Shown piece after piece: positions 9,045 to 45,925 of a stretch of DNA of 64,000 nucleotides. Both the position numbers and the translations under genes were made by a program. Origin of the DNA: a virus; IMG/VR virus record IMGVR_UViG_3300007609_000005, positions 32,001 to 96,000 of that record. The stretch is one strand, 5' to 3'. Each line of letters starts with the position of its first letter. Within the stretch, counting starts at the first letter, position 1. Below the pieces are notes generated by a model. It saw nothing but the letters and a program-made list of their open reading frames with translations. It had not been told where the DNA came from and made no database searches.

Positions 9045-9077
9045 TAAAACAAATCTTAAACATATAATAAAATTAAC

Positions 9078-10682: not shown

Positions 10683-10714
10683 GAGTGGGGTTGAATTTCA
10701 ACCCCACTCTTTTT
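10683..10714 (+). terminator. Intrinsic terminator
   Basis: GAGTGGGGTTGA-ATT-TCAACCCCACTC-TTTTT. Confidence 0.85.
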
Positions 10715-28504: not shown

Positions 28505-28604
28505 TCAATGAAATTCTTTTATCTATATATTATTTTGAAAAAGCCTATTGTTAATCCAAAAGTTATATGTATCTTTGTACAACAAATCAAAAACACACAC
28601 AAAA

Positions 28605-29492
28605 TTGAGTTATTACAGAAGAACACCAAATTTCCAACCTTACAACAAACAAAATCTTCTTGATCGAATCAACAAGATTGAAATTATCCGTGAGGAAAAC
28701 CAAGTCATTACTAAATATGACGGAAGAGTAACTGCAATTTCAGATGTTTCCAATAAGTATGAGGTCTTTGATATCAAGAAGTATATCCAAGAAAAACTTG
28801 ACCTTATTGAGAAAAACTTTGAAATCAAAGAGTTTTATTTTAGTGTAACAAAAGGAATCCAACAATTGAAACTGATCAGTGATACTATCGAGATCAATGG
28901 TATGGAATTCCACAAAACGTTTTTCATCATCAACTCATCTGATCGTTCAAGAAGACTTCAATTCAATTCAGGACTTTACTCAAAAGGAAGTAACTTCTAC
29001 ATGGTGAGTACAACACAAAACCTCGGACTCTCCAAAAAGCATTACCGAGGAATCACAGATGCAGCCGAGGAAGCAACAAAAGACATCAATGTTGAAACAT
29101 TTGACGAGCAGATTGAAGCAATTCAGAAATTAGTGGGACACAAGGTTGCATTCTCAAAACTACGTAAGGTCATGGTCGGTGATGGTAGTGTAAAAACAAA
29201 TCACCTTAAATTTGATAAACTCAAAGAACATCTTCTGTGGGCACTCCGAGAGGATAAATCTGTAACAATGACCGGTGAAAATTATTCACTCCTCAGAAAA
29301 CGGTCACAATATGCAGGAGATGTCGACCCAAATAAAGATTTCTATATGGATGCATTCATGGTATTCCAAGTTTATATGAAATTGTATTCACACTTGGACT
29401 CACACATTGTTAAAACAGAAACAGAAAGAATTCTTGGAATTACACAGTGGGCTGTGAGAAATGAATTATTGGGTGATCTTTTAGCAGTATAA
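28605..29492 (+). CDS. DUF932-like protein with C-terminal motif
   Basis: IINSSDRS...GLY; TTG start after TAnnTTTG; ends RNELLGDLLAV. Confidence 0.55.
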   Translation: MSYYRRTPNFQPYNKQNLLDRINKIEIIREENQVITKYDGRVTAISDVSNKYEVFDIKKYIQEKLDLIEKNFEIKEFYFSVTKGIQQLKLISDTIEINGMEFHKTFFIINSSDRSRRLQFNSGLYSKGSNFYMVSTTQNLGLSKKHYRGITDAAEEATKDINVETFDEQIEAIQKLVGHKVAFSKLRKVMVGDGSVKTNHLKFDKLKEHLLWALREDKSVTMTGENYSLLRKRSQYAGDVDPNKDFYMDAFMVFQVYMKLYSHLDSHIVKTETERILGITQWAVRNELLGDLLAV

Positions 29493-29497
29493 GTATT

Positions 29498-29713
29498 GTG
29501 GAAATAATACACCAAATAATAGCAGAAAGTGTCAGTGGCGGGGTTTTCAACTTCATTGGATATTGGTTAATGATAACGATATTCATTGGAGTTCCCGCCA
29601 AATTAATAGGATTTATAATAAATAGGATTCTAAGACACTGGACAATCAGAAAACATGGATACCCACCACCACATTGTGATGCAGATGGGGATTTTAAAGA
29701 AAAGGATAATTGA
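29498..29713 (+). CDS. Small membrane protein
   Basis: TM helix, then HGYPPPHCDADGDF. Confidence 0.65.
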   Translation: MEIIHQIIAESVSGGVFNFIGYWLMITIFIGVPAKLIGFIINRILRHWTIRKHGYPPPHCDADGDFKEKDN

Positions 29714-29728
29714 CATGATAGTTTGCAA

Positions 29729-30403
29729 TTAATCTCCCATAGCATCCCAATATCCCCAAAGGTATTTCTTAAATCGTTTCATTTGTTTGGCATTAAGAAC
29801 TTTCTTATAAACATCCCAAACCCAAGATTTTATATCCTTGGGATTATTCAATAACTGTAAAATATCATCCTTACTTTTACCTTGCTCAACTAACTGATCA
29901 ATCAATGATTGTGCATAGGCCATCAATTCCTTTTTATCATTCCAATATTTTTTAGGATTATGCGTTGGTGATGAATCTAACAAATATAAATCTGAATTAC
30001 CCATTCTACTAACTTGTTGTAGATGTATAGATTCATGTCTAAGAACCTCATTTAAAAAGGTGCATATATTTCTAACCATTTCTTTATCAGATAATGATTT
30101 TATGAACTTGTCTTCAATAACAACAATCATTATCATATCTTTATACTTATTATAAAGTGCGAATTTTATTCCAGCAAACAATTCTAACTCACGTGGTGCC
30201 ATTTCTTTCTCAATTTCAGTACCAAGGGAATCATGAAACGTGTCAAAATCAGCAAATTCTACTTTATACTCCCTTGACATTTTATTTAACGAAGAAATGC
30301 CATCAAACTTCTCATTTTTCAAACTCTGTAAAAGTTTATCGAAATTAAGTGGTTTTATTACACCTTCACTGAACGATATATAATTATCAAGATATTTCAT
30401 CAC
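29729..30403 (-). CDS. Putative zincin metallopeptidase with N-terminal targeting-like peptide
   Basis: HESIH (HExxH) plus downstream ELMAYA. Confidence 0.65.
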   Translation of the reverse strand: MMKYLDNYISFSEGVIKPLNFDKLLQSLKNEKFDGISSLNKMSREYKVEFADFDTFHDSLGTEIEKEMAPRELELFAGIKFALYNKYKDMIMIVVIEDKFIKSLSDKEMVRNICTFLNEVLRHESIHLQQVSRMGNSDLYLLDSSPTHNPKKYWNDKKELMAYAQSLIDQLVEQGKSKDDILQLLNNPKDIKSWVWDVYKKVLNAKQMKRFKKYLWGYWDAMGD

Positions 30404-30708
30404 ATACCCAATGCACTATTATCTTTATCCTCATAATATTCTTGTTCAGCCTTAACCTCATCAATAACTGATTGATCAACATTATTTGCTTCAAGTATAT
30501 TAACCACATTCTGATAAACATCCCTTTGTGCAGTTTTGCATATTGTAGTTGCATCACTCCGTTCTATAAACTTTTTCTTACGGAAATCTTCACCATATAA
30601 CTCTTCCCAATACCTTCCACTTCCTAACTGTTTCTTGAAAATATGTTCCCACATTTCACTTCTTATTTTGTCATCAGATGACTCATTGAATTTCTTTAAA
30701 TGTTTCAT
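30400..30708 (-). CDS. Hypothetical protein (MKHLKKFNE)
   Basis: Start at 30708 after TATATA. Confidence 0.75.
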   Translation of the reverse strand: MKHLKKFNESSDDKIRSEMWEHIFKKQLGSGRYWEELYGEDFRKKKFIERSDATTICKTAQRDVYQNVVNILEANNVDQSVIDEVKAEQEYYEDKDNSALGM

Positions 30709-30721
30709 ATGGTTATATATT

Positions 30722-30748
30722 AAACATTCCACCTGAAAAAATGTATAA
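30722..30748 (+). promoter_or_regulatory. AAAC-N18-TATA putative phage promoter (representative)
   Basis: Same spacing at 20771, 22553, 25847, 44911, 48736, 51129, 56810 and 58893; N17 at 23479. Confidence 0.6.
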
Positions 30749-30753
30749 AAATT

Positions 30754-31494
30754 ATGAACATTGACGAAGTAAAAAAGAAATTAGAGGTATTCAATGACCC
30801 ACAATTCACATTTAATGAGGAGAAACATATGTATCACTACAAAGGTGAGAGGTATATATCAGCAACTCAATTCCTTGAAAAATTCCATAAACCATTCGAT
30901 CAAAATTATTGGTCGAAAAGGAAAGCAGATGAACGTGGTGTTGAGCAACAAGTAGTACTTGATGAATGGCAAGAACTGAATGACTATGCAAATATAGTAG
31001 GATCTGCTACACATGAATGGATAGAGAATTACTTTAACCGAGTATATCAAGAACTACCAACCAATTTAGATATAATCGACCGAATCAACAAATTCAATAA
31101 GATATACCCAACACACCTTTCCAAATTAGAACCGATAAAAATGGAAACCCGGGTATTTTCCAAGAAATACCCAATTGCAGGAACTATTGATTCACTGTTT
31201 CTCTACAAGGGGAAAATTGTCATTGTTGATTATAAGACCAATAAAAAATTTACAACGGATGAAGATAATAGATGGAATATGTTGTTACCTCCATTTGATG
31301 ATCACTATGAGAATCATCACAATGAATATTCCATACAAGTATCATTATATGCATACATTTTGAAAGAGTGGGGATTTGATGTTGCTGGCGGCTATCTACT
31401 ATACATTGGACCTAATGATGATGCAAAATTTTACAAATCACACAACTTTATTGATAGACTTGGTGAATATTTACCACAACATAAGTTTGAATAA
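30754..31494 (+). CDS. PD-(D/E)XK exonuclease (Cas4/RecB-like)
   Basis: GSATH, AGTID, VDYKT, QVSLY. Confidence 0.8.
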   Translation: MNIDEVKKKLEVFNDPQFTFNEEKHMYHYKGERYISATQFLEKFHKPFDQNYWSKRKADERGVEQQVVLDEWQELNDYANIVGSATHEWIENYFNRVYQELPTNLDIIDRINKFNKIYPTHLSKLEPIKMETRVFSKKYPIAGTIDSLFLYKGKIVIVDYKTNKKFTTDEDNRWNMLLPPFDDHYENHHNEYSIQVSLYAYILKEWGFDVAGGYLLYIGPNDDAKFYKSHNFIDRLGEYLPQHKFE

Positions 31495-31527
31495 TTAGTA
31501 TAACAATTATAAAAAAGATATAAAATT

Positions 31528-31983
31528 ATGGATTTTAGAATAGTAAACACCGAAACACTTCTTAAAAACTTCAAACCATATCACGAGTCTATGGATTTGA
31601 TCAATGAGGAGAAAAAGAAATTCACTGATAGAGTTGATAGTATCAGAAATGAAATGGAAGGACTTGTCAAATCATCACAATTGATATTAGACGACAAGAG
31701 TACTCAGTCAAAAAAGGAAAGATTCAATGAATTGCAAACAGAGGCAGTTGAACTAGAAAACGAATTCAGACAGATGATATCTAAAATGCAAAACGAAGAG
31801 TTGGATAAGAACTTCAAAGATATTACTGACATCACACAAGAATGGGCAGTTAATAATGATGTAAAACACGTATTCAATGCACTTCAAATGGCATATACTG
31901 ATGGTACTGCAGATTGTACAGATGAAATCATTGAACTTATCAAAGAAAGAAACTTATATAAAGAATTTACTGAGGAAACCTAA
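31528..31983 (+). CDS. OmpH/Skp-like chaperone lacking a signal peptide
   Basis: VNTETLL N-terminus, long coiled coil, C-terminal DCTDEII. Confidence 0.6.
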   Translation: MDFRIVNTETLLKNFKPYHESMDLINEEKKKFTDRVDSIRNEMEGLVKSSQLILDDKSTQSKKERFNELQTEAVELENEFRQMISKMQNEELDKNFKDITDITQEWAVNNDVKHVFNALQMAYTDGTADCTDEIIELIKERNLYKEFTEET

Positions 31984-31988
31984 AACCA

Positions 31989-32378
31989 ATGATTGATTAT
32001 CCACAATATAGAATATTAAAATATTTCTATAGTGATAGAACAATTTCAGACTCATTTATAGATTCACGTGAGCGATTCGTTGTTGGTTATACTCTAATAA
32101 CTCAAGATGGATATTTGTATTTTAACCAAAGTAATGGAGATGTATGCAATATTAACACGGAACAATTAAAAGAACAAGATGTTCTATTAGAAAAAGAATG
32201 GGCAAATCCTAAACAAATTTCAGAAATTCTTAGAACACAACCATATGACCTTGGATCAAATGAATGGTCAAGTGGATATGGAATGTACTCAAAAGAACTT
32301 TGGAGACTTGTTCTCAAAGAGTTCAGAAATCATAAAATGGAGATATTATTGGATAAATTTGATTATAAACACCAATAA
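31989..32378 (+). CDS. Hypothetical protein with C-terminal motif
   Basis: RNHKMEILL. Confidence 0.65.
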   Translation: MIDYPQYRILKYFYSDRTISDSFIDSRERFVVGYTLITQDGYLYFNQSNGDVCNINTEQLKEQDVLLEKEWANPKQISEILRTQPYDLGSNEWSSGYGMYSKELWRLVLKEFRNHKMEILLDKFDYKHQ

Positions 32379-32423
32379 CGGAATTTGGATACCATTAAAA
32401 AAAAAGAAATTCTTCTTAAATGA

Positions 32424-32909
32424 TCATTTAAACTCATTTAAAAACTTCCTTTCTTTGCTTATAGGCTTTTTTTCGGATTCGTATCTAAGTTTAATCCAAT
32501 CAAGTATTTTAGCCTCATCGATATCCAATTCTAATTTTTCTAACCTATCGTCAGTGTAACCTGCCCAAATTTCAATATCCGGTCCAAAAGTACTATCAAC
32601 TGCCAATATTTTAATATTCTTGGACAACACACCCTTATTACCCAACCACCCATGGAATAAATAAACATCATGCTGTGAGGAGTGCTTTTCTTGCATCTTG
32701 GATATAGACTGTCTTAACTTGTTTGATTCAGTTTTTATTTCATCATTTTTTTCTACCTCTCTCGTATCACTACCTTTCTCCTTGTCCTTAATGGCCCTTT
32801 TCAATAACTTCATAGCATCTCTCCTATCCATAAACTTATTTAACTTATCTTTAACTTTGTGTTTGAACATATCAAAGTCAAACTCTTCATACGTTTTAAT
32901 ATTTTCCAT
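32424..32909 (-). CDS. Hypothetical protein (MENIKTYEE)
   Basis: TATATA promoter and N-terminal motif. Confidence 0.7.
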   Translation of the reverse strand: MENIKTYEEFDFDMFKHKVKDKLNKFMDRRDAMKLLKRAIKDKEKGSDTREVEKNDEIKTESNKLRQSISKMQEKHSSQHDVYLFHGWLGNKGVLSKNIKILAVDSTFGPDIEIWAGYTDDRLEKLELDIDEAKILDWIKLRYESEKKPISKERKFLNEFK

Positions 32910-32928
32910 AACCTATATATTATATTTT

Positions 32929-33723
32929 TTAACGAAAATTTTCATCAATCACCTTCTTATAAAACTTATTACAAACCTTCATAAAAGGTTCATCTAATTT
33001 GGCAAATTTACTATCAAGGTAATCCAAATCGGGGAATAATGTTTCTCCACCATCACAGTATTCACATGCTGTGTATACTTCACCGGAACCACCACATTCA
33101 TAACAAGTATCACCATAACCATCTTCCCCCTCCCCATTACAATCACTACACACTTCTTCTTCTTCACCTGCACCGTGACACATATCACATATCACATTAT
33201 AATCCTCTAATTCTCTACTAAACTCCTTCATTACATCCCAAACCATCTTACTAATTTGATAAACATCCATTAACCCGGATTCTTCCATATATTCCATCAT
33301 GTCCAAATGAAGTTGTATATCCTCATGGCTACTACTAAAACTCCTCCCACCACTTGATGCATAACCATTGAAGTAATATTGTGAGTGCCCCCCATTATTA
33401 ACCTGACCAATATAATTCATTATCATTATGACAAGAGCCAACCTATGGTCCTTTCTCCTAACGAATTCCAAAAAATCATCATAATTCCATGTTGAAGAAT
33501 CAAATCTCAGGTCATTTTCGTGTTCTTTCCATACACGATAATAATATTCATATATGGCCTCACAATAATTACCCACTCCATATGATGCTAAATTAAATAT
33601 CTTATGTTTCTTACCAACTGATTCAGAAAGACCCCTATCCTTTATTTTATCAAGAATGTTATTCAACATATCGTCTGATAATCTTTCGGATTCAAATATT
33701 CTCCAAGTTTTCAAGTGTTCCAT
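32929..33723 (-). CDS. DMP19/DUF4375-like protein with inserted DnaJ-type zinc finger
   Basis: QVNNGGHSQYYFN; four CxxCxG(xG) repeats. Confidence 0.6.
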   Translation of the reverse strand: MEHLKTWRIFESERLSDDMLNNILDKIKDRGLSESVGKKHKIFNLASYGVGNYCEAIYEYYYRVWKEHENDLRFDSSTWNYDDFLEFVRRKDHRLALVIMIMNYIGQVNNGGHSQYYFNGYASSGGRSFSSSHEDIQLHLDMMEYMEESGLMDVYQISKMVWDVMKEFSRELEDYNVICDMCHGAGEEEEVCSDCNGEGEDGYGDTCYECGGSGEVYTACEYCDGGETLFPDLDYLDSKFAKLDEPFMKVCNKFYKKVIDENFR

Positions 33724-33739
33724 TTAATATATATTAAAT
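33724..33739. promoter_or_regulatory. Palindromic bidirectional TATATA (late-type) promoter
   Basis: TTAATATATATTAA sits in the 16-bp gap between two divergent ATGs. Confidence 0.65.
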
Positions 33740-34681
33740 ATGAAACATTTAAAGAGCTTTTTTGAAAGTAGAATTGAACATTTATACCAACCATGTGGTA
33801 TATCTTGTGGGAACACTGTTCTCAAAATGTTATTGAATTTTTATGGAATATGTCCAGACACATCAATAGAAGAACTTATACGTATATGTGGCACAGACAA
33901 TAAAACTGGTACAACAGATAAGAAGTTAAAAGTTGGATTAGAATATGCTAACATACCACACGAACAAAATACAGTCATTGGAGAGGATTCTATAACTGAT
34001 CTCAAATCAAGATTAGGCAACGAACTATTCCTTATGAGAACTTTAACCAAAGGAATACCACATTGGATACTTGTATATCATTATGACGGTTCTATGTGGG
34101 ATGTTATGGACCCTTGGTTGGGTGAAATACAGTACAATGACCAAGAGATATTAGATATATGGGAACCAAGAAATTATGATGGGTTTTATGTACCAAGGAC
34201 ATTACCCCAATTGGAAAGATTTAATTTCTTTAATAAGAAAGAGAAATATCCAATTTCCCTTATTGGAAAAGAAGATATAGATGATGTTCTTGAATTGGCT
34301 GATAAAGTTTTTTGGGATTCCGGAATGGATAATAAGTTATATATCGGCTCAAATGCAGATTGGAGTATATCAGTTAAGATGGTGGATAGTGATCGAATAA
34401 TTGGGTTCTACATATTTAACAAAGAAGGATTACCATTCTCAAATGATAAATTCTCAGGTAAGGCAGTTCAGGGTGTTGCACTTGGAATAGATGAAGAATA
34501 TAAAGGGAAAGGACTTGGTAAGAAACTTATACAATATCCGTATGAGAATTTGGGAAACCAGTTCGATTATATATGGGGTATGCAACTTAAATCATTAAAG
34601 AACATCGATGATTGGTTGAAGAGAAGAGAAATTGTTGCAGATATGGGTGGTATGTACATAACTGCCGGATTATTAAACTAA
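33740..34681 (+). CDS. Peptidase C39-like domain fused to GNAT acetyltransferase
   Basis: Q...SCG, HW, DPW; YKGKGLGKKL acetyl-CoA motif A; starts MKHLKSFFE. Confidence 0.75.
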   Translation: MKHLKSFFESRIEHLYQPCGISCGNTVLKMLLNFYGICPDTSIEELIRICGTDNKTGTTDKKLKVGLEYANIPHEQNTVIGEDSITDLKSRLGNELFLMRTLTKGIPHWILVYHYDGSMWDVMDPWLGEIQYNDQEILDIWEPRNYDGFYVPRTLPQLERFNFFNKKEKYPISLIGKEDIDDVLELADKVFWDSGMDNKLYIGSNADWSISVKMVDSDRIIGFYIFNKEGLPFSNDKFSGKAVQGVALGIDEEYKGKGLGKKLIQYPYENLGNQFDYIWGMQLKSLKNIDDWLKRREIVADMGGMYITAGLLN

Positions 34682-34690
34682 TATACTAAT

Positions 34691-35263
34691 ATGAAACACC
34701 TAAAGAAATTCAATGAAATCAGTGGCTATCGGTCTAACTTCGACTTCGATAAGAATGAAATATACTACCACGGAACTACAGAACCGTTTGACAATTTCAC
34801 ATTGGGGAACAGAGTTACTACAAAAACCTATGGAAATAAAGCACCTGATCAAGGTCTCGGAACATTTTTCACTGATAATCTAACTATGGCAAAATGGTTT
34901 GCCGGTCGAACAGAATATGATCTCGATACCGAGAAGTATGAGGAACTATCTGGAACAGGTAGGGTAGTATCTGCCAATCTCAATATAAAGAAACCTTGGA
35001 TACTTAACGATAATTACTTAGACTATATGTCAAAAGAAGATTTTATTAATTGGGAAGACCCAATACAAGTTTATTTTGATATAATCAATACTGAAAGTGG
35101 TGGTGAAAATTTTAAAGAAAAGTTAAAAACTGATGGATATGATTCTGTAATAGTCAAAGGCGGTACAACAAATTATTATGAATACCCAAATACATATGAC
35201 ATTATTGTAGTGTTCAACCCATCACAGATCAATGTTATCTCAAAGAACGTTTTATCTGACTGA
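34691..35263 (+). CDS. ADP-ribosyltransferase-like (ART-PolyVal-type) protein
   Basis: YYHGT, GTFFT, GYDSV, VVFNPSQI; starts MKHLKKFNE. Confidence 0.7.
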   Translation: MKHLKKFNEISGYRSNFDFDKNEIYYHGTTEPFDNFTLGNRVTTKTYGNKAPDQGLGTFFTDNLTMAKWFAGRTEYDLDTEKYEELSGTGRVVSANLNIKKPWILNDNYLDYMSKEDFINWEDPIQVYFDIINTESGGENFKEKLKTDGYDSVIVKGGTTNYYEYPNTYDIIVVFNPSQINVISKNVLSD

Positions 35264-35302
35264 ATTTCTAATATATATATATATATAAACCTATTTAGAA
35301 TT

Positions 35303-35569
35303 ATGAAACACTTAAGCACATTCAATGAACATTATGGACCAATTTATGACATAGGTGATAAATATGAAAGAATATCACCAATTGGACCAGGAGTTGCTGG
35401 AATGGGTAGAAAATTCAATAGTTTCACAATAGTTGATGATACACCAACCCATTATAAGATTCGCGGTAAGATTGTAAGTGGTATAGACGATACACGTAAA
35501 ATACACAAGAAGGACTTCAATGAGTTCATGAAAAATTTCAAAAGAGTACTACATATAGGAAAAGATTAA
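35303..35569 (+). CDS. Hypothetical protein (MKHLSTFNE)
   Basis: ORF after an (AT)8 run. Confidence 0.7.
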   Translation: MKHLSTFNEHYGPIYDIGDKYERISPIGPGVAGMGRKFNSFTIVDDTPTHYKIRGKIVSGIDDTRKIHKKDFNEFMKNFKRVLHIGKD

Positions 35570-35586
35570 TTTATTATCTTTGTTAA

Positions 35587-35880
35587 ATGACTGAAAAGGA
35601 TGTTCAAAAACTAAATGAATTAGTAACTGATAGTTTCCATTTCCATTTACATAATACACATACCAAAAAATGGCTAATCATTATTCATAAAGAAAGCAAA
35701 ACAACATTATTTAAATTCGAAAGTCACACATTCACCCTAGAGAAATTAATGAAAACTCTTAGACAAAACATGAAAAGTAAGCATATATATGGGTCTAGTA
35801 GGAAATACCGAGAAGAATTATATAAACAACTCAAACATTATGACCGAAATAGAAAACTAAAAGAACTTCTTGATATATAA
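35587..35880 (+). CDS. Hypothetical protein with C-terminal motif
   Basis: Ends RNRKLKELLDI; TAnnTTTG at 35575. Confidence 0.7.
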   Translation: MTEKDVQKLNELVTDSFHFHLHNTHTKKWLIIIHKESKTTLFKFESHTFTLEKLMKTLRQNMKSKHIYGSSRKYREELYKQLKHYDRNRKLKELLDI

Positions 35881-35886
35881 AGAGTA

Positions 35887-35949
35887 ATGAATAATAAATC
35901 TGAAAATAACTTAGTGGTCGTCACTGATATCGTCAAGATGTTGGTGTAG
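35887..35949 (+). CDS. Val-rich attenuator leader peptide
   Basis: MNNKSENNLVVVTDIVKMLV*; five Val codons (GTG GTC GTC, GTC, GTG) directly upstream of valS. Confidence 0.75.
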   Translation: MNNKSENNLVVVTDIVKMLV

Positions 35950-36014
35950 ATAACTAATTCATTATATCCCAAGTGAATCCCAACATCTGAAACAGGTGTT
36001 GGGATTCTCCGTTT
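35936..36014 (+). promoter_or_regulatory. Attenuator terminator/antiterminator of valS
   Basis: 15-bp hairpin 35975-35989/35993-36007; AGATGTTGG (35936-35944) is complementary to CCAACATCT (35980-35988). Confidence 0.72.
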
Positions 36015-36037
36015 ACAAAAAATTAAAATCAAAAATT

Positions 36038-37366
36038 ATGAAAACTAAAAAATATTTAATAGATACTCCACCTGCAACAATTTCAGGTAAATTGCACATA
36101 GGACATCTGTTCTCTTATACACAGGCAGATATTATCGCCCGATACCATAGATACAAAGGCGATGAACTGATATATCCTTGGTGCTTCGATAACAATGGGT
36201 TACCTACATATAAATTGGCAAACAATCGAAAGATTAAAGGTCATGACAACATACTCAACTTCTCAATCGAACGTTCTAATGAGTACATAGACACATTCAA
36301 TAATGCAGGTATAGAGTTCGGAAATACCGAGTACCACACATTTTCTGAATCATCCATAGATATTGCATATAAGGCATTCGAGTTACTGAAGTCAAAGGGT
36401 ATAATCTATAAAAAGGAAACTGAATTCATGTGGTGTCCTAAACAAAAATGTTCCATATCACAATCTGAACTGGGTGATGATGGTAGAATAGAACGTAGTG
36501 GTGAATTTCCAGAGATAAAGACGGGGTGGGGCTGGTTCATAGACATCAAGAACCATATTCCACAGATAAAGGAAAAAATAGAGGAAATAGATTGGAAGCC
36601 TGAGAGGTTTAAACAGAATGCACTAAATTGGGCAGATAACATTGAATGGGATTGGTCCATATCAAGAGAACGGTATTATGGTATTCCGATACCAGGTGAA
36701 GAAAGAATGACATTTGACACTTGGTTCATCTCTTCCCTATCGCCACAACTGGCTTGGAACTCATATACGGGTGATACTAGCCTAGATATCCCTATATTTG
36801 ATATGAGATACCAAGGACATGATATTATTCGAACATGGGCTTTCTATACGATTGCAATGTCATATTTTTTAAACAATCAAATACCTTGGAAGACACTTAT
36901 GATAACAGGACATACACTTGATGGTAAGGGAGATAAGTTCTCCAAGTCATCTGGAAATGCCACTGATCCAAGACCATATATCGATAGACACAAACCATCA
37001 GGAATAAGATGGTGGGCATGTTCAACAACCTTGGGGAATGATATAAAACTAGATGAGCCAAAGATGAAAATGGGTTGGCGTATTGAGAACAAACTTCTAA
37101 ACGCCAAGAAATTCATAAAAATGCAAATAGATAATGAGTGGATAGGTGAAGATGAAAGCCTTATGACGGAATATTTAGACCATAAGGATCGGATACTTGA
37201 ACATTTCGAAAATTATGAACTGGATAAGGCAACTGATCACATATACACATTCTTTTGGAATATATTCTGTGATAAGTGGATAGAGGCATCCAAGAAAAAC
37301 CCAACTTCAATAACATTGAATAATATAATTACTGACTTCGAAAAAATAATGAATATCATATTATGA
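36038..37366 (+). CDS. valS: Minimal valyl-tRNA synthetase lacking CP1 editing domain
   Basis: DTPPATISGKLHIGH, WDWSISRERYYGIPIP, FDTWF, QGHDIIRTW, KFSKS; 442 aa. Confidence 0.88.
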   Translation: MKTKKYLIDTPPATISGKLHIGHLFSYTQADIIARYHRYKGDELIYPWCFDNNGLPTYKLANNRKIKGHDNILNFSIERSNEYIDTFNNAGIEFGNTEYHTFSESSIDIAYKAFELLKSKGIIYKKETEFMWCPKQKCSISQSELGDDGRIERSGEFPEIKTGWGWFIDIKNHIPQIKEKIEEIDWKPERFKQNALNWADNIEWDWSISRERYYGIPIPGEERMTFDTWFISSLSPQLAWNSYTGDTSLDIPIFDMRYQGHDIIRTWAFYTIAMSYFLNNQIPWKTLMITGHTLDGKGDKFSKSSGNATDPRPYIDRHKPSGIRWWACSTTLGNDIKLDEPKMKMGWRIENKLLNAKKFIKMQIDNEWIGEDESLMTEYLDHKDRILEHFENYELDKATDHIYTFFWNIFCDKWIEASKKNPTSITLNNIITDFEKIMNIIL

Positions 37367-37998
37367 GAAATAAAACATATTACCCAAATGATATGCTTGA
37401 TATAGTGGAATATGTCAAAGAAAACCCAAGTGATAAATCACCAGAAGAAATTTATAACGACTGGACAATTCATACTAATAATAAATTAACAGAACATGAA
37501 AGAGGAACACTAGGGGATATTAAAATATTCAGAGAAAAATTAAAAGGGGATTCAGAACTTGTTCTTTTTTGGGATGGTCGACAATCATCAAGAGTATTTG
37601 AACTCGCCCAAAATAAATATTTCAATGATACTAAATATTGGGATTTCAATCAAAATTCTTTTATACACGCATTCAGAATGGACATCAGTAATATAAATAG
37701 TCTATGGAGTCCATATAAGGATGATAAATATTTCCAATTTTATAAACACACATTCGATAATGGTAATGAGATGATATTATTGTTCGGTTCTTTATCACCC
37801 GAAGACGATTCTTATAAATATGATAAATATACACTCAGTGATGTTATACGAGAAGAGGGAATATCTAAATATATGACATTCATAGAATCATCATTGTCAA
37901 ATCCATGGCTTATGGTATTATTCAAGGATAATCCCGAATATGGATTTGAATATGAGAATGGTATTGAGGTAATAGAGAAAAGATTCTCCAAAAAATAA
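37363..37998 (+). CDS. Hypothetical protein
   Basis: 211 aa ORF. Confidence 0.7.
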   Translation: MRNKTYYPNDMLDIVEYVKENPSDKSPEEIYNDWTIHTNNKLTEHERGTLGDIKIFREKLKGDSELVLFWDGRQSSRVFELAQNKYFNDTKYWDFNQNSFIHAFRMDISNINSLWSPYKDDKYFQFYKHTFDNGNEMILLFGSLSPEDDSYKYDKYTLSDVIREEGISKYMTFIESSLSNPWLMVLFKDNPEYGFEYENGIEVIEKRFSKK

Positions 37999-38011
37999 AT
38001 AAACCAGTAAT

Positions 38012-38506
38012 ATGAAAAAGCCAACACGACAAGAAATCGCCAATAAGTTTGATACTTGGGTAGAGAACTATGAACCGGATACACACGATCTACAATCTAT
38101 TTTTGAGGCGGGAATTGAATATGCATTTGAGTATCAAAAACCATCAAGAGTGATGAGAACTTATACAGAACTTGGATTCCCAATAGATGTTAAACTCATA
38201 CATGATATAATGACCAATAAAGTTGATCATGAATTATACGATGAGTTATACAATATGGATAATATAGAAATCACTAAGGTTGATACATCCAGAACAGAAA
38301 GTAATTGGACTGATACGTGGATAACGATTATTTTCACTGCATGGGATAGTAATCAGGAATATAAAAACAATACTATCAAAATTGATAACTTAGGCAGAGT
38401 GACTGTGGATATAAATGATACACCATGGGAAAGTGGGGGTGTTTCTAGAGAAATTGAAGAAATTGTTATGGGTCTAGTTACAAAAGCTAAATATGTAACT
38501 GATTGA
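38012..38506 (+). CDS. Hypothetical protein
   Basis: 164 aa ORF. Confidence 0.7.
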   Translation: MKKPTRQEIANKFDTWVENYEPDTHDLQSIFEAGIEYAFEYQKPSRVMRTYTELGFPIDVKLIHDIMTNKVDHELYDELYNMDNIEITKVDTSRTESNWTDTWITIIFTAWDSNQEYKNNTIKIDNLGRVTVDINDTPWESGGVSREIEEIVMGLVTKAKYVTD

Positions 38507-38533
38507 TATAATTAAAAACGAAGAACCATAGCA

Positions 38534-38842
38534 ATGAAGAATGAATTAGTTCCAAAAATAGGACAGCAAATAATCTGTATAAAAAGTGATCATATCACTG
38601 ATATAAATGATGGTATATCTAAAGGCAAAACTTATACCATTCATGATATAACTACTCCAGAGGATAACAGAAATGGTTGGGCACATGGAACAAAAAGCTG
38701 TGTTTTCTTATTTGAACCAAAGTGGTCGATTATTATTGATAACGGAACAATAGTCAGTTATAACCTTTCAGAATTATGTGAATATTTCAATGCTAAAGGA
38801 CTACTCAGAAATGATACAATAAATAGCATACTATATGGATAG
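38534..38842 (+). CDS. Hypothetical protein with C-terminal motif
   Basis: Ends RNDTINSILYG. Confidence 0.7.
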   Translation: MKNELVPKIGQQIICIKSDHITDINDGISKGKTYTIHDITTPEDNRNGWAHGTKSCVFLFEPKWSIIIDNGTIVSYNLSELCEYFNAKGLLRNDTINSILYG

Positions 38843-38915
38843 TTATTTTCACGGCAAAGAAAATATTGGGTAACTAAATTTCATTCCGTATATTTGTTCA
38901 TATAATAAATATGCA

Positions 38916-39227
38916 ATGAAAATAAACCTAAGCGAAAATGTTATCATATACCCAAGTAAAGAAGGTTGGATAAAAATCTATGAAACATTTGCAAATAGGT
39001 ATAGGAAACCCTATAATGAAGCAATAAACCATATAGATGAGTATAACCGAACAGATGATAATGGATTTAAGGAACAATTATGGGTAATTATGGAAATGTA
39101 TAATGGGTTATTATATAATGGAAGTACATTACTCTCTAATATGGATGTGGACCTATTGAATAATTATACCCTATCTGAACAAGATAAAAGAAGTATTAAA
39201 TTACAAAATATCTTAGACAATAAATAA
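38916..39227 (+). CDS. Hypothetical protein with C-terminal motif
   Basis: Ends RSIKLQNILDNK. Confidence 0.7.
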   Translation: MKINLSENVIIYPSKEGWIKIYETFANRYRKPYNEAINHIDEYNRTDDNGFKEQLWVIMEMYNGLLYNGSTLLSNMDVDLLNNYTLSEQDKRSIKLQNILDNK

Positions 39228-39270
39228 TATTAAATTATTTTTGTATATTTGTACAAACAAACACTCACAA

Positions 39271-39705
39271 ATGGAAATTTACGAAGTAACTTACAAGAAC
39301 GAATTAGCAAGAGTAAAAAAATACCCATCAGATTATTATGATATCGATGGGAAAATAGCATTCCGTGTTGTAATCGAAGAGAATGTTCATACAGTTGTGG
39401 TTATGGCAAAAAACATAGAAGCAGTTCGTAACGTGTATAAAGAGGAAACTCACACATGTAATGGATTCACAAAACGAACATTATATGATGTTGAAATAAA
39501 ACACTTACGTTCCGAAGAAAATCAATTTGAAGCACTTTTCCCAGATGATAAAGTGACTACAGTCAAGCCACAGAAAACCAAAACAACCAGAGACATCCGG
39601 GAAGAAGATGCATTCTGTGCAGACGAAGTTCAAGAAAGGTATAGTAAATTGGATGACTCAGGTAAAGAATATATGAGAACTCACAGAGAATACTCAGATT
39701 TTTGA
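39271..39705 (+). CDS. Hypothetical protein
   Basis: ATG after TAnnTTTG (39244). Confidence 0.7.
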   Translation: MEIYEVTYKNELARVKKYPSDYYDIDGKIAFRVVIEENVHTVVVMAKNIEAVRNVYKEETHTCNGFTKRTLYDVEIKHLRSEENQFEALFPDDKVTTVKPQKTKTTRDIREEDAFCADEVQERYSKLDDSGKEYMRTHREYSDF

Positions 39706-39738
39706 TTAAATATATAATATACAAAAAAAAGAGTCAAA

Positions 39739-40011
39739 ATGACAAAAATCAAAAAATTCACCGAAAATACATCACCGAAAGCAAAAGATAAGTACCTAAC
39801 AGTTGGGAAAATGAAAGAATTGCTTAATAAATACCAAGATGATATGCTTATTGGAGCAATTGGACACTTTGGTGAATTCATGGAAATGACGGATTTTGAT
39901 GTTTCATCAAGAAAATCATATTTAACCAATGGGTCAAGTTGGAGAAACCGTGGTGAAGAAGTAACAGTAGTGGAACTCACAGTTCCTGAAAAGGGTCCAG
40001 AGCCAGACTAA
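39739..40011 (+). CDS. Hypothetical protein (MTKIKKFTE)
   Basis: TATATA promoter and N-terminal motif. Confidence 0.7.
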   Translation: MTKIKKFTENTSPKAKDKYLTVGKMKELLNKYQDDMLIGAIGHFGEFMEMTDFDVSSRKSYLTNGSSWRNRGEEVTVVELTVPEKGPEPD

Positions 40012-41390
40012 CCATAGAACTGTTTCTTATACTCTTCCTTATACTTATTGGAGATTTCATAATAATCATAATCAACAGTCCGTATTACATTTTCAAAAAT
40101 CTCTTTCATATATTTATCAATGTAGCCATCCTCATATTTATATGACATATCGGTTACATTTACTTTATCAGACAATTTAACCTCATTCAAGTCGAAATGG
40201 GGTTTTATATAATCAGTACCCATATAGAAAGAGTATTCTAAAATATCATTCTCATTACTGAAAATAATCATTTTATAAATTCCTTTCAATTTTTCCAAAT
40301 AACTTTCAACAACCTCTTTTATCTCTTTTGAGACATATGCATTATTATAATACTCACCATCTATTTCAACATAGTCATGGTAATTATTCTTATACATCTC
40401 CCACACCTCATTATCAATTATCCTTTCGATGTCCCGGTAAAACTCTTTCTTTATATCCCCTTTGGTTTTTTTACCTACCCATTGTTTCTTTTTAAAATAA
40501 TCTTCCAAGGTATCTGACTTATGTTTTCTCATATCATCACTCAACATTTTCAGAAGAAACCTTGACATTTTGTCCGGCTTAGAACGGATGTTATGTACCA
40601 TATTAGAAATAACATACACCGCCTCGTGTTCATATGGTGAACCCAATCGATAATGATTGTGTGTTTCTTTCCCCAATGTTTCGTCCAATTCTTTCTTCAA
40701 CTTATCACTATTCATAAATTTAACAATCCTATCATAGTTCTTTTCATCGTTAAAAGATAAAAATGATGCCAATTTAATTTGATCATACTTAGGTACCCAA
40801 GTAGTTTTGGATTCACCATCACCCTCTTCGAAATCAGAAGATACATTTTTAATGGGGTTCTTTTGGTTTAGGAAATCTTCTTTATTTTTATATAGATACA
40901 ATGGAATATCACGTTTATTACAATAATGAATCAATTCAGAAACACCATCATAATATTCATCATCTCTCTGATATGCATCACAATGTATTTCTAAGATATA
41001 CTTACTTGCATTCGGTATAACAGCATCATTTGATACCAATCTATCCTCTTGTTCAGTTTCCAATGCACTCTTATAAGAACTCACTGTTTGGTACTCATTG
41101 GGGTCCTTCGACCATTGCCAATAATCAACGGGGATTATTTTATACTTGTTCCTTAATTTACGATCATCAAGTAATATTTTAGTATTACCCGATCGATAAC
41201 CACTACTCTTACTCCTAGTCATTGAGAAAAAGAAAAATCTACCCTTATTTATTTTAAGATCGGACGATGTTCCTGCAGCCGATGTCAAACTTATTTCATC
41301 ATTCTTAAGTATGTTGGCAACATAACCACTATTTGTGAAATGGTATAAACCATAACCTACTTTTTCCAAAAAGGTTTTTAGGAACTTCAT
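40008..41390 (-). CDS. Protein with N-terminal ART-like domain (MKFLKTFLE)
   Basis: LYHFT, FSMTRS, EQEDR pattern. Confidence 0.6.
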   Translation of the reverse strand: MKFLKTFLEKVGYGLYHFTNSGYVANILKNDEISLTSAAGTSSDLKINKGRFFFFSMTRSKSSGYRSGNTKILLDDRKLRNKYKIIPVDYWQWSKDPNEYQTVSSYKSALETEQEDRLVSNDAVIPNASKYILEIHCDAYQRDDEYYDGVSELIHYCNKRDIPLYLYKNKEDFLNQKNPIKNVSSDFEEGDGESKTTWVPKYDQIKLASFLSFNDEKNYDRIVKFMNSDKLKKELDETLGKETHNHYRLGSPYEHEAVYVISNMVHNIRSKPDKMSRFLLKMLSDDMRKHKSDTLEDYFKKKQWVGKKTKGDIKKEFYRDIERIIDNEVWEMYKNNYHDYVEIDGEYYNNAYVSKEIKEVVESYLEKLKGIYKMIIFSNENDILEYSFYMGTDYIKPHFDLNEVKLSDKVNVTDMSYKYEDGYIDKYMKEIFENVIRTVDYDYYEISNKYKEEYKKQFYG

Positions 41391-41442
41391 AATTTTATAT
41401 ATTAAAAATAACTTTTAACGATTAAAATCGTATATTTGTAGT

Positions 41443-42723
41443 ATGTCAAAGAATAAAAAGTATATTAATGTGATGTTCCCATACCCAAGTGGTTCAGGCC
41501 TTCACATCGGACATGTTTATAATTATGCAATAATGGATTCCTATTCCAGGTATTGGCGGTATAGAGGATATGATGTATTTCAACCATTCGGATTTGACTC
41601 ATTCGGACTTCCTGCCGAAAATTATGCCAAAAAAGTTGGAAGGAAGCCAAGTGAAGTCACATATGAGAATATTGAAAACTTCAGAAAACAAATGAGAGAC
41701 ATGAATACTGAATATACTGAGTTGCTAACGACTTCGGATGTTTCATATTATAAATGGACACAGTGGATATTCAGTAAGTTGAGAGAACATGGTTTGGCAT
41801 ACAAAAAAGATGGTGAAGTGAATTGGTGTACATCGTGTGAAACTGTCTTGGCAAGAGAACAAGTTAAAGATGGTGTGTGTAAAAGGTGTAGTTCTACCGT
41901 GGAAGAGAAGGTAATGAACCAATGGTATTTCAAGATAACCGATTACAAGGACAGGTTGATCAAAAATTTGGATCACATCGACTACCCACAATCAACTATC
42001 AATGCACAAAGAAATTGGTTGGAGAATTTGCACGATTGGTGTGTTTCAAGACAAAGAAGTTGGGGATGTCCAATTCCCGTTGAAAATGAAACAGACACAT
42101 TGGATACATTTGTCGATTCATCTTTCTATTTTGTTCGATATTGTGACCCATTCAATGATGAAGAATTGTGTTCAAGAGATAAATACCAACAAGTCGATAT
42201 GTATGTTGGTGGAAGTGAACACGCCTGTATGCACTTGATATATGCCAGGTTCATTCATATGTTCTTGTACGATATTGGTGTTGTCCCGGTCGAAGAACCA
42301 TTCAAAAGTGTAAGACACCAAGGTATGATATTGAATGATGGTGAAAAGATGTCAAAGTCAAAAGGAAATACAATAAATCCCGATGATTACGACCCAGATG
42401 AGTTGAGAATGTACTTGATGTTCATTGGCCACTATTTCGATGGTGGTTCGTGGTCAGATAAGAATATAAAGGGAATTAGACGATTCATCGGCAGGTTTAA
42501 GGAATGGATGTCGAGAGAAGGTGATCATGTTATTGACATCGAACCATTCAAAGAGAAAGTTTTCAATTATACGGAATCTTTCAAATTCAACAAAGTTGTT
42601 TCTGAGTATATGACATTGGTGAATAAGAATAGAAAATACAACATAACCCCTGAAGTTAAAAAAGAATTGACCAATATTTTGAAAATATATATCCCCGGTT
42701 TAGAATTGGGTGATGGTGATTAA
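41443..42723 (+). CDS. leuS: Minimal leucyl-tRNA synthetase lacking CP1 editing domain
   Basis: MFPYPSGSGLHIGH, GFDSFGLPAEN, DWCVSRQRSWGCPIP, DTFVDSS, YVGGSEHA, KMSKS; 426 aa. Confidence 0.92.
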   Translation: MSKNKKYINVMFPYPSGSGLHIGHVYNYAIMDSYSRYWRYRGYDVFQPFGFDSFGLPAENYAKKVGRKPSEVTYENIENFRKQMRDMNTEYTELLTTSDVSYYKWTQWIFSKLREHGLAYKKDGEVNWCTSCETVLAREQVKDGVCKRCSSTVEEKVMNQWYFKITDYKDRLIKNLDHIDYPQSTINAQRNWLENLHDWCVSRQRSWGCPIPVENETDTLDTFVDSSFYFVRYCDPFNDEELCSRDKYQQVDMYVGGSEHACMHLIYARFIHMFLYDIGVVPVEEPFKSVRHQGMILNDGEKMSKSKGNTINPDDYDPDELRMYLMFIGHYFDGGSWSDKNIKGIRRFIGRFKEWMSREGDHVIDIEPFKEKVFNYTESFKFNKVVSEYMTLVNKNRKYNITPEVKKELTNILKIYIPGLELGDGD

Positions 42724-42788
42724 CTTCACTTTATGATTTGGTAATACATATATTTTTCGTAAATTTACATAAACAAATCAAAAATCAG

Positions 42789-42986
42789 ATGAATATCACA
42801 AACGAAAAAATGCTTTCTGATCAAGAAAACTCAAAACTGTGGTTCAATAACTTGACATCAGGTGAAGAACAAATGTTATTGTATAAATATAATCACAAAA
42901 ATGCATTCCTATCAACAAAGGAGGTTGAGGAAATGTGGAAATCCGAATTATCTGAATCATTGACCAATAGAGTGAATGACATCTGA
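42789..42986 (+). CDS. Hypothetical protein
   Basis: Small ORF. Confidence 0.55.
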   Translation: MNITNEKMLSDQENSKLWFNNLTSGEEQMLLYKYNHKNAFLSTKEVEEMWKSELSESLTNRVNDI

Positions 42987-43308
42987 AATTAAAAAAAGTA
43001 TATTAATATCATTATTCACAACCCAAGGAAATTATGTGAGCAATGATGGTATATTCCGAGTTGGTCCGGACTTCAAGCCATTTGACATTTTCATATTTCA
43101 TAAATTAGTGGAAAGCTCAATATTACTTGAGATAAGTACTGGTATTGATGGTTCGGAAAAAGATACTAAATACAACTGGTGCTATATACTCAACCATAAT
43201 AGACTTATAGAAAAAATCAAATCAATAGATGAAAAATTTACAGACTATGATTGGAATTATCTATTAAGATTGTCAAGGGAAAATAAACTAAACAATATTC
43301 TAAGTTGA
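42976..43308 (+). CDS. Hypothetical protein with C-terminal motif
   Basis: Ends RENKLNNILS. Confidence 0.7.
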   Translation: MTSEIKKSILISLFTTQGNYVSNDGIFRVGPDFKPFDIFIFHKLVESSILLEISTGIDGSEKDTKYNWCYILNHNRLIEKIKSIDEKFTDYDWNYLLRLSRENKLNNILS

Positions 43309-43326
43309 TCATTCAATAATATTTAT

Positions 43327-43728
43327 ATGAGAACAACACCCAAAAATATTAAGAAACTTGAAAGTAACCAAATATTTGTATTTGGCAGCAACCAATCCGG
43401 AAGACATGGGAAAGGTGCTGCGAAAACAGCACTTGGTTGGGGTGCTGTATATGGACAAGCAGAGGGTTTGCAAGGTAAAACCTATGGAATTCCAAGTAAA
43501 GATAAAAGCATAAGACGAACGTTATCCATAGAGGAAATTAAACCTTACGTTGATAGATTTATAGAATTTGCTGAAACCCACCCCGAACTAACATTCTTAG
43601 TAACTGAAATCGGTTGTGGTTTGGCAGGATTAAAGCCCAAGAATGTAGCACCCCTTTTTACAGAATGCAAGAATCTTGAAAATGTTTGGCTACCTGCTAG
43701 GTTTTGGCATAAGTTAGGTGGAACATAA
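43327..43728 (+). CDS. A1S_2505-family (macro-like) phage protein
   Basis: IFVFGSN..GRHGKGAA, TEIGCGLAG. Confidence 0.75.
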   Translation: MRTTPKNIKKLESNQIFVFGSNQSGRHGKGAAKTALGWGAVYGQAEGLQGKTYGIPSKDKSIRRTLSIEEIKPYVDRFIEFAETHPELTFLVTEIGCGLAGLKPKNVAPLFTECKNLENVWLPARFWHKLGGT

Positions 43729-43756
43729 TAACATACCCAAAACTAATATATAATCA

Positions 43757-44209
43757 ATGGATCATATATTAAATTACAATAATTTCCCAATACTTGAACA
43801 ACGCAACGATGGATTAGTGGCGTATCACGGAACATCTGATAAGAACATCCAAAACATCCAAAACAATGGATTGAATAAGCCATTTTTAGCAAAAACATAT
43901 GAATTGGCAGAATATTATGCAGAAGAAGCATGTGATGATATCGGTGGGAATCCAATAATTATCGAACTTGTAGTCCCTGATATTTCAAAATTAAGATATG
44001 ATGGTGCTGCGATGGATGAACCGGTTCTAGTCGATGAAAATACTGTCCAAAAGGAGTTAGATAAAGCAGAGGAAGAACACCCGGAGTGGGTCAAAGGCGA
44101 TGTTATTATTATTCCAAGTGATGAGTGGGAATATTCATGGAGAGGTGCAAATTCAATTTGGTATGATGGTTATATATCAAGTGATAATTTCATTAGTGAA
44201 TATGACTAA
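43757..44209 (+). CDS. ART-like protein with N-terminal targeting-like peptide
   Basis: AYHGT...FLAKTYELAEYYA. Confidence 0.6.
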   Translation: MDHILNYNNFPILEQRNDGLVAYHGTSDKNIQNIQNNGLNKPFLAKTYELAEYYAEEACDDIGGNPIIIELVVPDISKLRYDGAAMDEPVLVDENTVQKELDKAEEEHPEWVKGDVIIIPSDEWEYSWRGANSIWYDGYISSDNFISEYD

Positions 44210-44254
44210 TTATTTTTATATTTGTGTTAGTATTCACAGCAAATTAAAACTAAT

Positions 44255-44449
44255 ATGGAAAACATAACAGTAAATGCATTAGAATTGGCATCAGAATTAG
44301 CCGACCAAAAACTCAGAGCCGATTGGAGTGAATCCATCACCATTGATGCAGGAGATGGTGAAGAAGTATTTTACACGGAAGAGGCACAAGACCTTTTTAA
44401 TGAATACTATGACAAATATTTCACCTTGATAAATTCTTGCAAGGCGTGA
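44255..44449 (+). CDS. Hypothetical protein
   Basis: ORF after TAnnTTTG (44217). Confidence 0.65.
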   Translation: MENITVNALELASELADQKLRADWSESITIDAGDGEEVFYTEEAQDLFNEYYDKYFTLINSCKA

Positions 44450-44880
44450 TGTATAAAATAGAACGCCATAATCTAGTAACCGAAACCATTAAAGACATTC
44501 TTTATGTTTTTGGTGGTAGGAAAATCTATACCATAGATACACATTCATCGTCTTATAATAGTAAAAAAGCATATTTTCTAAATACTGAAGAAGAAATCCC
44601 CATACACATATACACGAAACTGTATAATGCACATCTTTTAAGTATTGAGGGTGATGTCTACCTTGGGGAATCAAAACCATGGTATAATCAATTGAAAAGA
44701 TTTCTACCCAAAGACCCAAGTGTGGAAAATAAAGTTATAACAGTTTACACATTTAACGAACCATTGATACGGTTTCGAGTACACGGCTTAATTTCAAGTG
44801 GTGATTGGAAACAAACTGAACGGGATACATTGAAGACAATGAAGCGTAACATAAGAATAAATGAAATTTTGAGTAACTAA
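44449..44880 (+). CDS. Hypothetical protein with C-terminal motif
   Basis: Ends RNIRINEILSN. Confidence 0.7.
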   Translation: MYKIERHNLVTETIKDILYVFGGRKIYTIDTHSSSYNSKKAYFLNTEEEIPIHIYTKLYNAHLLSIEGDVYLGESKPWYNQLKRFLPKDPSVENKVITVYTFNEPLIRFRVHGLISSGDWKQTERDTLKTMKRNIRINEILSN

Positions 44881-44942
44881 TTGCGTACAGAAATTATACC
44901 GAACTATATTAAACTTTATCACAATAAATGTGTATAGTAAGT

Positions 44943-45152: not shown

Positions 45153-45205
45153 ATTTTGACTAAATGTATATAATTATACAAGTGATAATTTTATATATAT
45201 ATTTA

Positions 45206-45910: not shown

Positions 45911-45925
45911 GTTAATATATACTCA

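Follow-up and report, generated by a model that had tools for sequence, protein, structure and literature searches.

In E. coli, the pheM-pheST operon is the classical example of ribosome-mediated attenuation of synthetase genes, and trpL, hisL, leuL, thrL and ilvL are the attenuators of enterobacterial amino-acid operons, the ilv leaders using Val codons as well. A study by Lopatovskaya, Seliverstov and Lyubetsky (2010, Mol Biol 44:128) reportedly deals, by its title, with classical attenuation of aminoacyl-tRNA synthetase operons in bacteria. Attenuation of the trpL/hisL/leuL/thrL/ilvL type has been modelled (PMC1183508), and in Firmicutes and Actinobacteria T-box riboswitches precede valS, ileS and other synthetase genes (PMC1262725). 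Here, we describe a 64,000-nucleotide stretch of viral DNA, called the window throughout, which comprises bases 32001-96000 of the 132,459-base linear virus record IMGVR_UViG_3300007609_000005 (denoted G000; completeness estimate 52%), and within it the region preceding a gene for an enzyme related to valyl-tRNA synthetase (ValRS). Judged from its sequence and its relatives, this region is most probably a valine-set, ribosome-mediated (leader-peptide) transcription attenuator of the trp/his/pheM kind, so that synthesis of the ValRS would probably be confined to a shortage of charged valine tRNA. The region belongs to a predicted bank of such elements on the synthetase genes of this phage. The original prediction, made from the letters of the window, had been entitled a translational attenuator; this title was not borne out, as the control proposed here is of transcription, via translation of the leader.

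Huge phages carry up to 15 synthetases (PMC7162821), and the passages of that paper on these enzymes leave their regulation unmentioned. A full-text literature search of main articles (the supplements of PMC7162821 may list these genes) returned no leader-peptide attenuators before phage synthetase genes and no account of synthetases devoid of their own amino acid.

Leader, alternative helices and the valine-free synthetase

The 157 bases that separate a 97-codon open reading frame (ORF; stop at 35880) from a 442-codon gene (ATG at 36038) contain a short ORF and three alternative helices, which are conserved and covary. Sequence and comparison further show cognate leaders before the sister genes and a product free of valine. 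The positions of the individual elements are compiled in the table below. The short ORF agrees with the 20-codon leader and the peptide given in the original prediction. Besides the run of three valines (VVV), it contains Val codons at 35932-35934 (GTC) and 35944-35946 (GTG). All five are GTG or GTC, which had been called uncommon in this DNA, and the codon usage of the record confirms this: among its 171 ORFs of at least 100 amino acids (aa), GTC makes up 10% and GTG 15% of the Val codons, together 25%, which puts the chance of drawing all five from this rare quarter at about 0.25^5 = 0.001. Val is also the most enriched of the 20 residues in the leader, with 5 of the 19 residues after the initiator (binomial P = 3e-3).

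The leader is followed by a hairpin, and the fold reproduced its 15 bp, its AAA loop and its predicted place about 30 nucleotides (nt) before the valS ATG. All 15 pairs are perfect (35976-35990 with 35994-36008; 7 GC), the structure reaches -22.4 kcal/mol on its own, which makes it the most stable among the attenuators compared, and it ends 29-30 nt before the ATG. The 160-nt region as a whole folds at -45.2 kcal/mol vs -24.1 kcal/mol for shuffled versions (z = -5.7), and 0 of 200 shuffles equal it. A 10-bp stem, helix 1:2 or the anti-antiterminator, is part of the minimum-free-energy fold; its 5' side starts at the third VVV codon and its 3' side reaches to one base 5' of the leader TAG. For the competing structure, the RNA was masked up to a point 11 nt beyond the A-site codon for a ribosome on the cognate run, and the rest was folded without the 3' arm of the terminator. 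Under these settings 14-15 of the 15 bases of the 5' arm paired upstream, and 1-2 of 300 shuffled versions of the segment upstream folded as stably. The pairing of the 3' segment of the leader with the 5' arm of the hairpin, likewise part of the original prediction, was recovered by folding, and the antiterminator and terminator helices are mutually exclusive in the window. At the footprint sizes that we assumed, a ribosome stalled on VVV leaves segment 2 free and one at the stop codon covers it.

The strongest supporting fact, missed by the original prediction, is that the ValRS contains no valine; Val is the only residue type absent from it. Therefore, translation of the enzyme should still be possible under a shortage of charged tRNA(Val). 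Attenuation predicts just this pair, a sensor of the shortage followed by an enzyme whose translation does not depend on the charged tRNA concerned, and none of the rival explanations weighed below predicts it. The ValRS family comprises 548 proteins at E <= 1e-20, many of them on contigs of 350-770 kb. Of the 120 best homologues, 104 contain two Val at most (none in 76, one in 18, two in 10), and the other 16 contain at least three.

The label valS held in part. The product is a class Ia synthetase closest to ValRS: it contains the class I core PF00133 (8e-49) plus PF08264, its best NCBIfam models are valS (345, 256 and 249 bits) vs 153 bits for ileS, and its best PDB match is the T. thermophilus ValRS 1gax (E = 1.5e-34). 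It is not a full-length equivalog, as every valS equivalog model stays below its cut-off (345 vs 738 bits) and in the alignment to 1gax residue 189-232 is followed directly by 378, with the CP1 region left out. The cut-offs are missed because this CP1 editing insertion is absent.

Table. Positions of the features in the window and in the whole record (G000), and content of the cognate residue in the synthetases of the window record and of the 634-kb relative (LR745206.1)
Feature	Window	G000	Strand	Remarks	Own residue
Upstream ORF	35587-35880		+	Stop codon overlaps TATATAA box	
Putative promoter-like TATATAA box	35874-35880		+	7 nt 5' of leader ATG	
Leader ORF	35887-35949		+	ATG start, 20 sense codons, TAG at 35947-35949	
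Putative regulatory codons GTG GTC GTC (VVV)	35914-35922		+	Rare Val codons in window genome	
Helix 1:2 (anti-antiterminator)	35922-35946		+	35922-35931 with 35937-35946, loop 35932-35936	
Segment 2 (antiterminator strand)	35936-35944		+	Just before leader stop codon (1-3 nt); pairs with 35980-35988	
Terminator-type hairpin (segments 3 and 4)	35976-36008		+	15 bp, loop AAA	
Weak U-tract (TCCGTTTACA)	36009-36018		+	4 T in first 8 bases vs 5-8 T in relatives	
Regulated gene, ValRS-like class Ia synthetase, 442 aa	36038-37366	68038-69366	+	No CP1 editing domain; valS models best, below cut-off	0 Val in 442
LeuRS-like, 426 aa	41443-42723	73443-74723	+	leuS_bact 417 bits, cut-off 548	
IleRS, 738 aa		95055-97271	-	ileS TIGR00392 690-691 bits, above 621 cut-off	0 Ile in 738
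AsnRS		8951-10117	-	asnS 393 bits, above cut-off	0 Asn in 388
GlnRS		958-2526		glnS 612 bits, above cut-off	1 Gln in 522
ValRS, 634-kb relative					0 Val
IleRS, 634-kb relative					0 Ile in 735
AsnRS, 634-kb relative					0 Asn in 392
AspRS, 634-kb relative					0 Asp in 433
PheS-like, 634-kb relative					0 Phe in 359
GlnRS, 634-kb relative					1 Gln in 532

Conservation in relatives and sister synthetase genes

Seven loci of the AT-rich clade could be placed on DNA: the window, L004, L085, L086, L087, L088 and L096. L004 lies in LR745206.1 (W01), a 634,780-base uncultured phage referred to here as the 634-kb relative, L085-L088 come from IMG/VR, and L096 is a contig binned into a metagenome-assembled genome. 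Conservation of the leader and of its Val codons had been named beforehand as the point on which the proposal could fail, and both are kept in all seven: each locus has a leader of 14-20 codons in which Val is the top-enriched residue, with a VVV run in six of them and V-I-V plus a third Val in L088. The distance from the leader stop to the 5' arm of the hairpin ranges from 21 to 31 nt, and that from the end of the hairpin to the ATG from 28 to 41 nt, except for 65 nt in L086, measured there to an inserted gene. Each of the six relatives has a canonical stem, with 5-8 T among the 8 bases that come after it, and in every one the equivalent of segment 2 overlaps or abuts the leader stop codon. 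The terminator cores differ among the loci (CAACAT, CGACAT, CACCAG) and segment 2 changes in step; the suggested check for covariation in related phages thus revealed joint changes in the terminator and in the part of the leader complementary to it. RNAalifold on the untouched MAFFT alignment of the seven sequences recovered helix 1:2 and the terminator, with double-sided changes that keep the pairing at 9 of the 18 RNAalifold pairs.

The inserted gene of L086 (690-1490) is a GIY-YIG-type homing-endonuclease-like ORF that lies between the Val terminator and valS and leaves the attenuator intact. The flanks of this insert are nearly identical to L087, which is without it.

Several collections were searched for further loci. 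In the 'phages' collection, blastn and tblastn found LR745206.1 as the only related record, and a scan of genome contigs yielded one usable locus, L096. A metagenome scan with the family alignment recovered, among the matches listed, nearly all long cellular ValRS and one short-type locus, L005, without a leader. A viral scan with P0002 as query, the nearest relative (78% identity; known here as a protein only), gave no match. Two of the GC-richer loci, L089 and L091, have a Val-rich upstream ORF of different architecture. There, the region about 200 nt 5' of the ValRS start contains a tRNA gene, then a TATAAT box and then the ORF, with 9 Val in 55 residues in L089, 5 in 51 in L091 and the motif F-V-V-x-V in both. 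This ORF runs across the ValRS start in a different frame, lies within a long-range stem and may represent a different kind of Val sensor.

Five synthetases are encoded in the whole window record, four of them behind a leader rich in their own amino acid and a terminator. The original prediction had suggested inspecting the region 5' of ileS for an Ile-rich leader. Window positions 63055-64000 (minus strand) hold the 3' part of the IleRS gene, which extends beyond the window end, and about 1.3 kb past that end, at G000 97311-97432, we found an Ile attenuator with a 19-codon leader containing four consecutive Ile (IIII), an antiterminator and a canonical terminator. The leader of AsnRS reads NNNN.N and that of GlnRS has 7 Gln in 19 codons (QQ.QQQ); both are followed by a terminator, in the latter case before a two-gene operon. 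The fifth gene, LeuRS-like, showed neither leader nor terminator and has a 52-nt divergent spacer with a TATATTTG box. The 634-kb relative adds Asp, Leu and Phe-type cases; its Leu-rich leader and terminator are followed by a small ORF and then the LeuRS-like gene. Sensing through rare codons as a general rule was ruled out, as the Ile and Asn leaders use common codons.

A blind scan of five records gave an independent replication. We searched for stems of 8 bp or more that include 4 or more GC pairs and are followed by 5 or more T within 8 bases, located before an ORF of at least 120 aa that starts no more than 160 nt downstream, and typed the downstream genes with NCBIfam (glnS, asnS, ileS, aspS, PheS-related ligase). 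The scan returned 29 sites, of which 12 precede a typed synthetase gene or operon (Val four times, Ile three times, Asn twice, and Gln, Asp and the PheS-related ligase once each) and a 13th lies before a His-free mini class II gene. Runs of three or more cognate residues occur in 9 of the 12 synthetase-site leaders, vs any run of three in 2 of the 16 other sites (LLL and KKK). In 13 of 15 leaders the cognate residue is the most enriched of the 20 (Leu ranks second, Asp third), and an antiterminator overlapping or abutting the leader stop codon forms in all 15 attenuators examined. For 14 of these, it is equalled by 0-9 of 300 shuffles.

The loss of the sensed residue extends to the sister enzymes (see table). 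Where the cognate residue is absent, no other residue type is, and the genome medians of these residues are 2.4-8.7%. The LeuRS-like enzyme of the window record, which lacks CP1 and an attenuator, is not Leu-free and uses TTG for 19 of its 23 Leu codons vs 25% genome-wide. Its counterpart in the 634-kb relative uses TTG for 18 of 18 vs 14% genome-wide, and the Leu leader of that phage uses other Leu codons, namely CTT, CTA and TTA.

Further ORFs of the 634-kb relative show a similar composition: an AlaRS-like ORF of 248 aa without Ala, class II ORFs of 207-211 aa without His, a 392-aa ORF just 3' of AsnRS without Arg, a class IIb-like ORF of 246 aa with 1 Gly and a GluRS-like ORF with 6 Glu in 492. 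At 613818-614897 (minus strand), a gene matches the NCBIfam model 'PheS-related mystery ligase SrmL' (423 bits, cut-off 300); its upstream leader has an FFF run and its product no Phe, a combination that points to phenylalanine as its amino acid. Beside valS, at 32198-33619 (minus strand; L004 5299-6672), there is a second short class Ia synthetase in a 474-codon frame that has no Met codon and hence no ATG start, and no leader was found in the 200 nt upstream of it. This ORF may encode a Met-free MetRS-like enzyme with a non-ATG start.

Leaders of mixed composition were seen before tRNA genes. Four tRNA clusters of LR745206.1, at 342554, 366228, 387898 and 406869, are each preceded by a short ORF and a terminator, and the residues of these ORFs match the tRNAs behind them (His/Lys/Phe/Ser/Trp; Ile/Gly; Asn/Leu/Thr/Val/Ile; Pro/Gln/Asp). 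The last of these units also covers GlnRS at 408154. In the relative G002 (86590-87390), a leader rich in His, Lys and Phe and a terminator precede a 207-aa His-free class II ORF, which is followed by Tyr, Phe and His tRNA genes (87485-87808).

Proposed mechanism and rival explanations

The mechanism that follows is a model as regards the promoter, the space covered by a ribosome, termination itself and the effect of charged tRNA. Transcription would begin just 5' of the leader ATG, and a ribosome would translate the 20-codon leader as RNA polymerase proceeds. With Val-tRNA(Val) plentiful, the ribosome at the TAG would cover segment 2 (taken here as 35936-35946), the hairpin would form and transcription would end before the synthetase gene. 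With charged tRNA(Val) scarce, the ribosome would stall on GTG GTC GTC and helix 1:2 would melt; segment 2 would then pair with the 5' arm of the hairpin, no terminator would form and the ValRS gene would be transcribed, its valine-free product being translatable under the very shortage that switched it on. The conserved leader, the covarying helices and the cognate sister leaders at IleRS, AsnRS and the GlnRS operon support the attenuation logic of the original prediction.

A number of points weigh against this reading. The seven Val loci are few and related, L086 and L087 being nearly identical and L004 and L085 close, and four of the six GC-richer distant loci (L005, L090, L092 and L093) are without a leader. 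The leader ORF was chosen as the short ORF richest in the cognate residue, which is a selection even though it was mostly the sole candidate. In four Val leaders Asn ranks second in enrichment, and given this enrichment part of their composition may reflect AT bias. Val codons 16 and 20 sit inside or beside segment 2, so that a stall there would favour termination and not read-through. The antiterminator of G003 is weak (29-41 of 300 shuffles fold as well). The U-tract of the window had already been called weak, and rightly so: its tail, TCCGTTTA, is an interrupted run with 4 T in 8 bases that misses the filter of at least 5 T passed by all relatives; the window hairpin would fail a standard scan for intrinsic terminators, and the termination efficiency of this copy is uncertain. 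The putative promoter just 5' of the leader was read from a short AT-rich box in AT-rich DNA, a Shine-Dalgarno sequence is absent at the leader, the translation of which is an assumption, and the sole sequencing run containing the window DNA is a DNA library.

The hairpin might instead terminate the transcript of the upstream gene cluster or stabilise its 3' end, and the short ORF might be a chance frame in AT-rich spacer DNA. The leader ATG is indeed only 7 nt past the stop codon of the upstream ORF, hairpins of the AAACCC...GGGTTT form follow many phage genes, and 16 of the 29 scan sites precede non-synthetase genes. However, a chance ORF would not retain a Val run in seven of seven loci, runs of Ile, Asn, Gln, Asp, Leu and Phe recur before the matching enzymes, and the antiterminator overlapping the stop codon is found in 15 of 15; we consider this explanation highly improbable. 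Hardly more credible is a role of the short ORF in translation, either by ribosome loading or reinitiation for the synthetase gene or as a small functional peptide. Leader genes near structural genes have been proposed to boost translation via reinitiation (PMC4833913), and the mRNAs considered here lack Shine-Dalgarno sequences. Against such a role stands the gap of 88 nt between the leader stop and the ATG, which contains the 15-bp hairpin, whereas PMC4833913 places reinitiation at about 10-16 nt and attenuation at 40 nt or more; in addition, conservation of the peptides is limited to the cognate run and to the segment that pairs as RNA.

Another explanation accepts the stall sensor as real and assigns its output in the window to Rho-type termination, to RNase cleavage or RNA stability, or to a pause of a phage polymerase. 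The U-poor tail of the window and the unmatched stability of its hairpin would fit. Textbook U-tracts directly 3' of the stem in all six relatives speak for intrinsic termination, which makes a different output unlikely, if clearly less so than the two explanations above. As the hairpin ends well before the ATG, it cannot mask the start site. A T-box or another known riboswitch was ruled out by an Rfam scan of 35000-36500 (E up to 10), which gave no T-box match and only five chance-level matches (miRNA, CRISPR, sRNA).

Beyond the attenuator itself, we tentatively propose a phage backup for charging failure: a bank of sensors, one per amino acid and in relatives including tRNA arrays, that would switch on stripped-down synthetases purged of their own residue, with defence or takeover during infection as the trigger and not nutritional starvation. 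This has a reasonable chance of being right, somewhat short of even; sequence alone cannot tell starvation from host defence as the trigger. If true, the phage could restore any single failed step of tRNA charging with the charged tRNA essentially absent, for example after shut-off of a host synthetase or when defences cut or uncharge particular tRNAs.

Source record, hosts and comparison with known systems

The window record has 33% G+C and uses the standard code. An alternative genetic code, for which the TAG at the leader end and tRNAs of G002 gave occasion, was ruled out for this record, as 89% of it is coding under code 11 and each of the three stops is in use, TAG in 19 of the 171 ORFs. 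In the relative G002 (20356-20507 and 31661-31756), two tRNAs with CTA anticodons and one with TCA appear suppressor-like. This hints at stop-codon reassignment in that phage, of which the window record bears no sign. Just 5' of the locus, within 33740-35263, a 313-aa ORF has peptidase C39 and GNAT matches and a 190-aa ORF an ADP-ribosyltransferase (ART-PolyVal) match.

The terminators of all five records share the design (G)AAACCC...loop...GGGTTT followed by a T-run (e.g., window 10683-10709), and this design occurs both after ordinary genes and within attenuators. A scan of 28000-46000 with consensus promoters and terminators found sites no more numerous than in shuffles and did not list the leader hairpin. 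A TATATA(A/C)-type box or a TATATTTG box lies within 30 nt 5' of the ATG in 15 of the 16 tabulated leaders (in the 16th row, Val_G002, the wrong hairpin and ORF had been chosen), and the latter box we take to be the Bacteroidota -7 motif. Judging from this motif and from the prediction that the class of the 634-kb phage infects Bacteroidetes (PMC7162821), the hosts appear to be of Bacteroidota type.

Sensing by coupled transcription and translation would thus work in viruses of apparently Bacteroidota-type hosts. Cognate sensors in combination with enzymes free of their own residue suggest that phage synthetases are emergency parts made on demand and not constitutive boosters. Moreover, the residues read by the leader and the residue missing from the product may together offer a sequence-only route to the specificity of synthetase-like genes, for which the PheS-related ligase of the 634-kb relative is an example.

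Compared with the systems described so far, the Val attenuator is closest to pheM-pheST. Both have a short leader rich in the cognate residue, alternative 1:2, 2:3 and 3:4 helices and a terminator before the synthetase gene, and the output of both rises as the cognate charged tRNA falls, as far as this is proposed for the viral element. Unlike pheM-pheST, the Val attenuator is viral, starts nearly leaderless without a Shine-Dalgarno sequence, is set for Val, is banked with Ile, Asn and Gln sisters in one genome and precedes a product purged of the sensed residue. The logic and geometry of trpL, hisL, leuL, thrL and ilvL are the same; however, these control biosynthesis and answer to amino-acid supply, whereas the Val attenuator would control a tRNA-charging enzyme. 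As the controlled enzyme charges tRNA, the useful signal would be charging failure and not merely lack of the amino acid. T-box elements likewise lead to synthetase production when the cognate tRNA is uncharged, by a choice between terminator and antiterminator, but they bind uncharged tRNA directly and without translation, whereas the Val leader, of about 120 nt, is proposed to be translated. Finally, proteins needed under scarcity of an amino acid have been described to contain less of it (cognate bias; PMC4209129). Unlike the bias described there, the depletion in these phages is total, with 0 residues in enzymes of 388-738 aa, it affects synthetases, and it is paired with a sensor.

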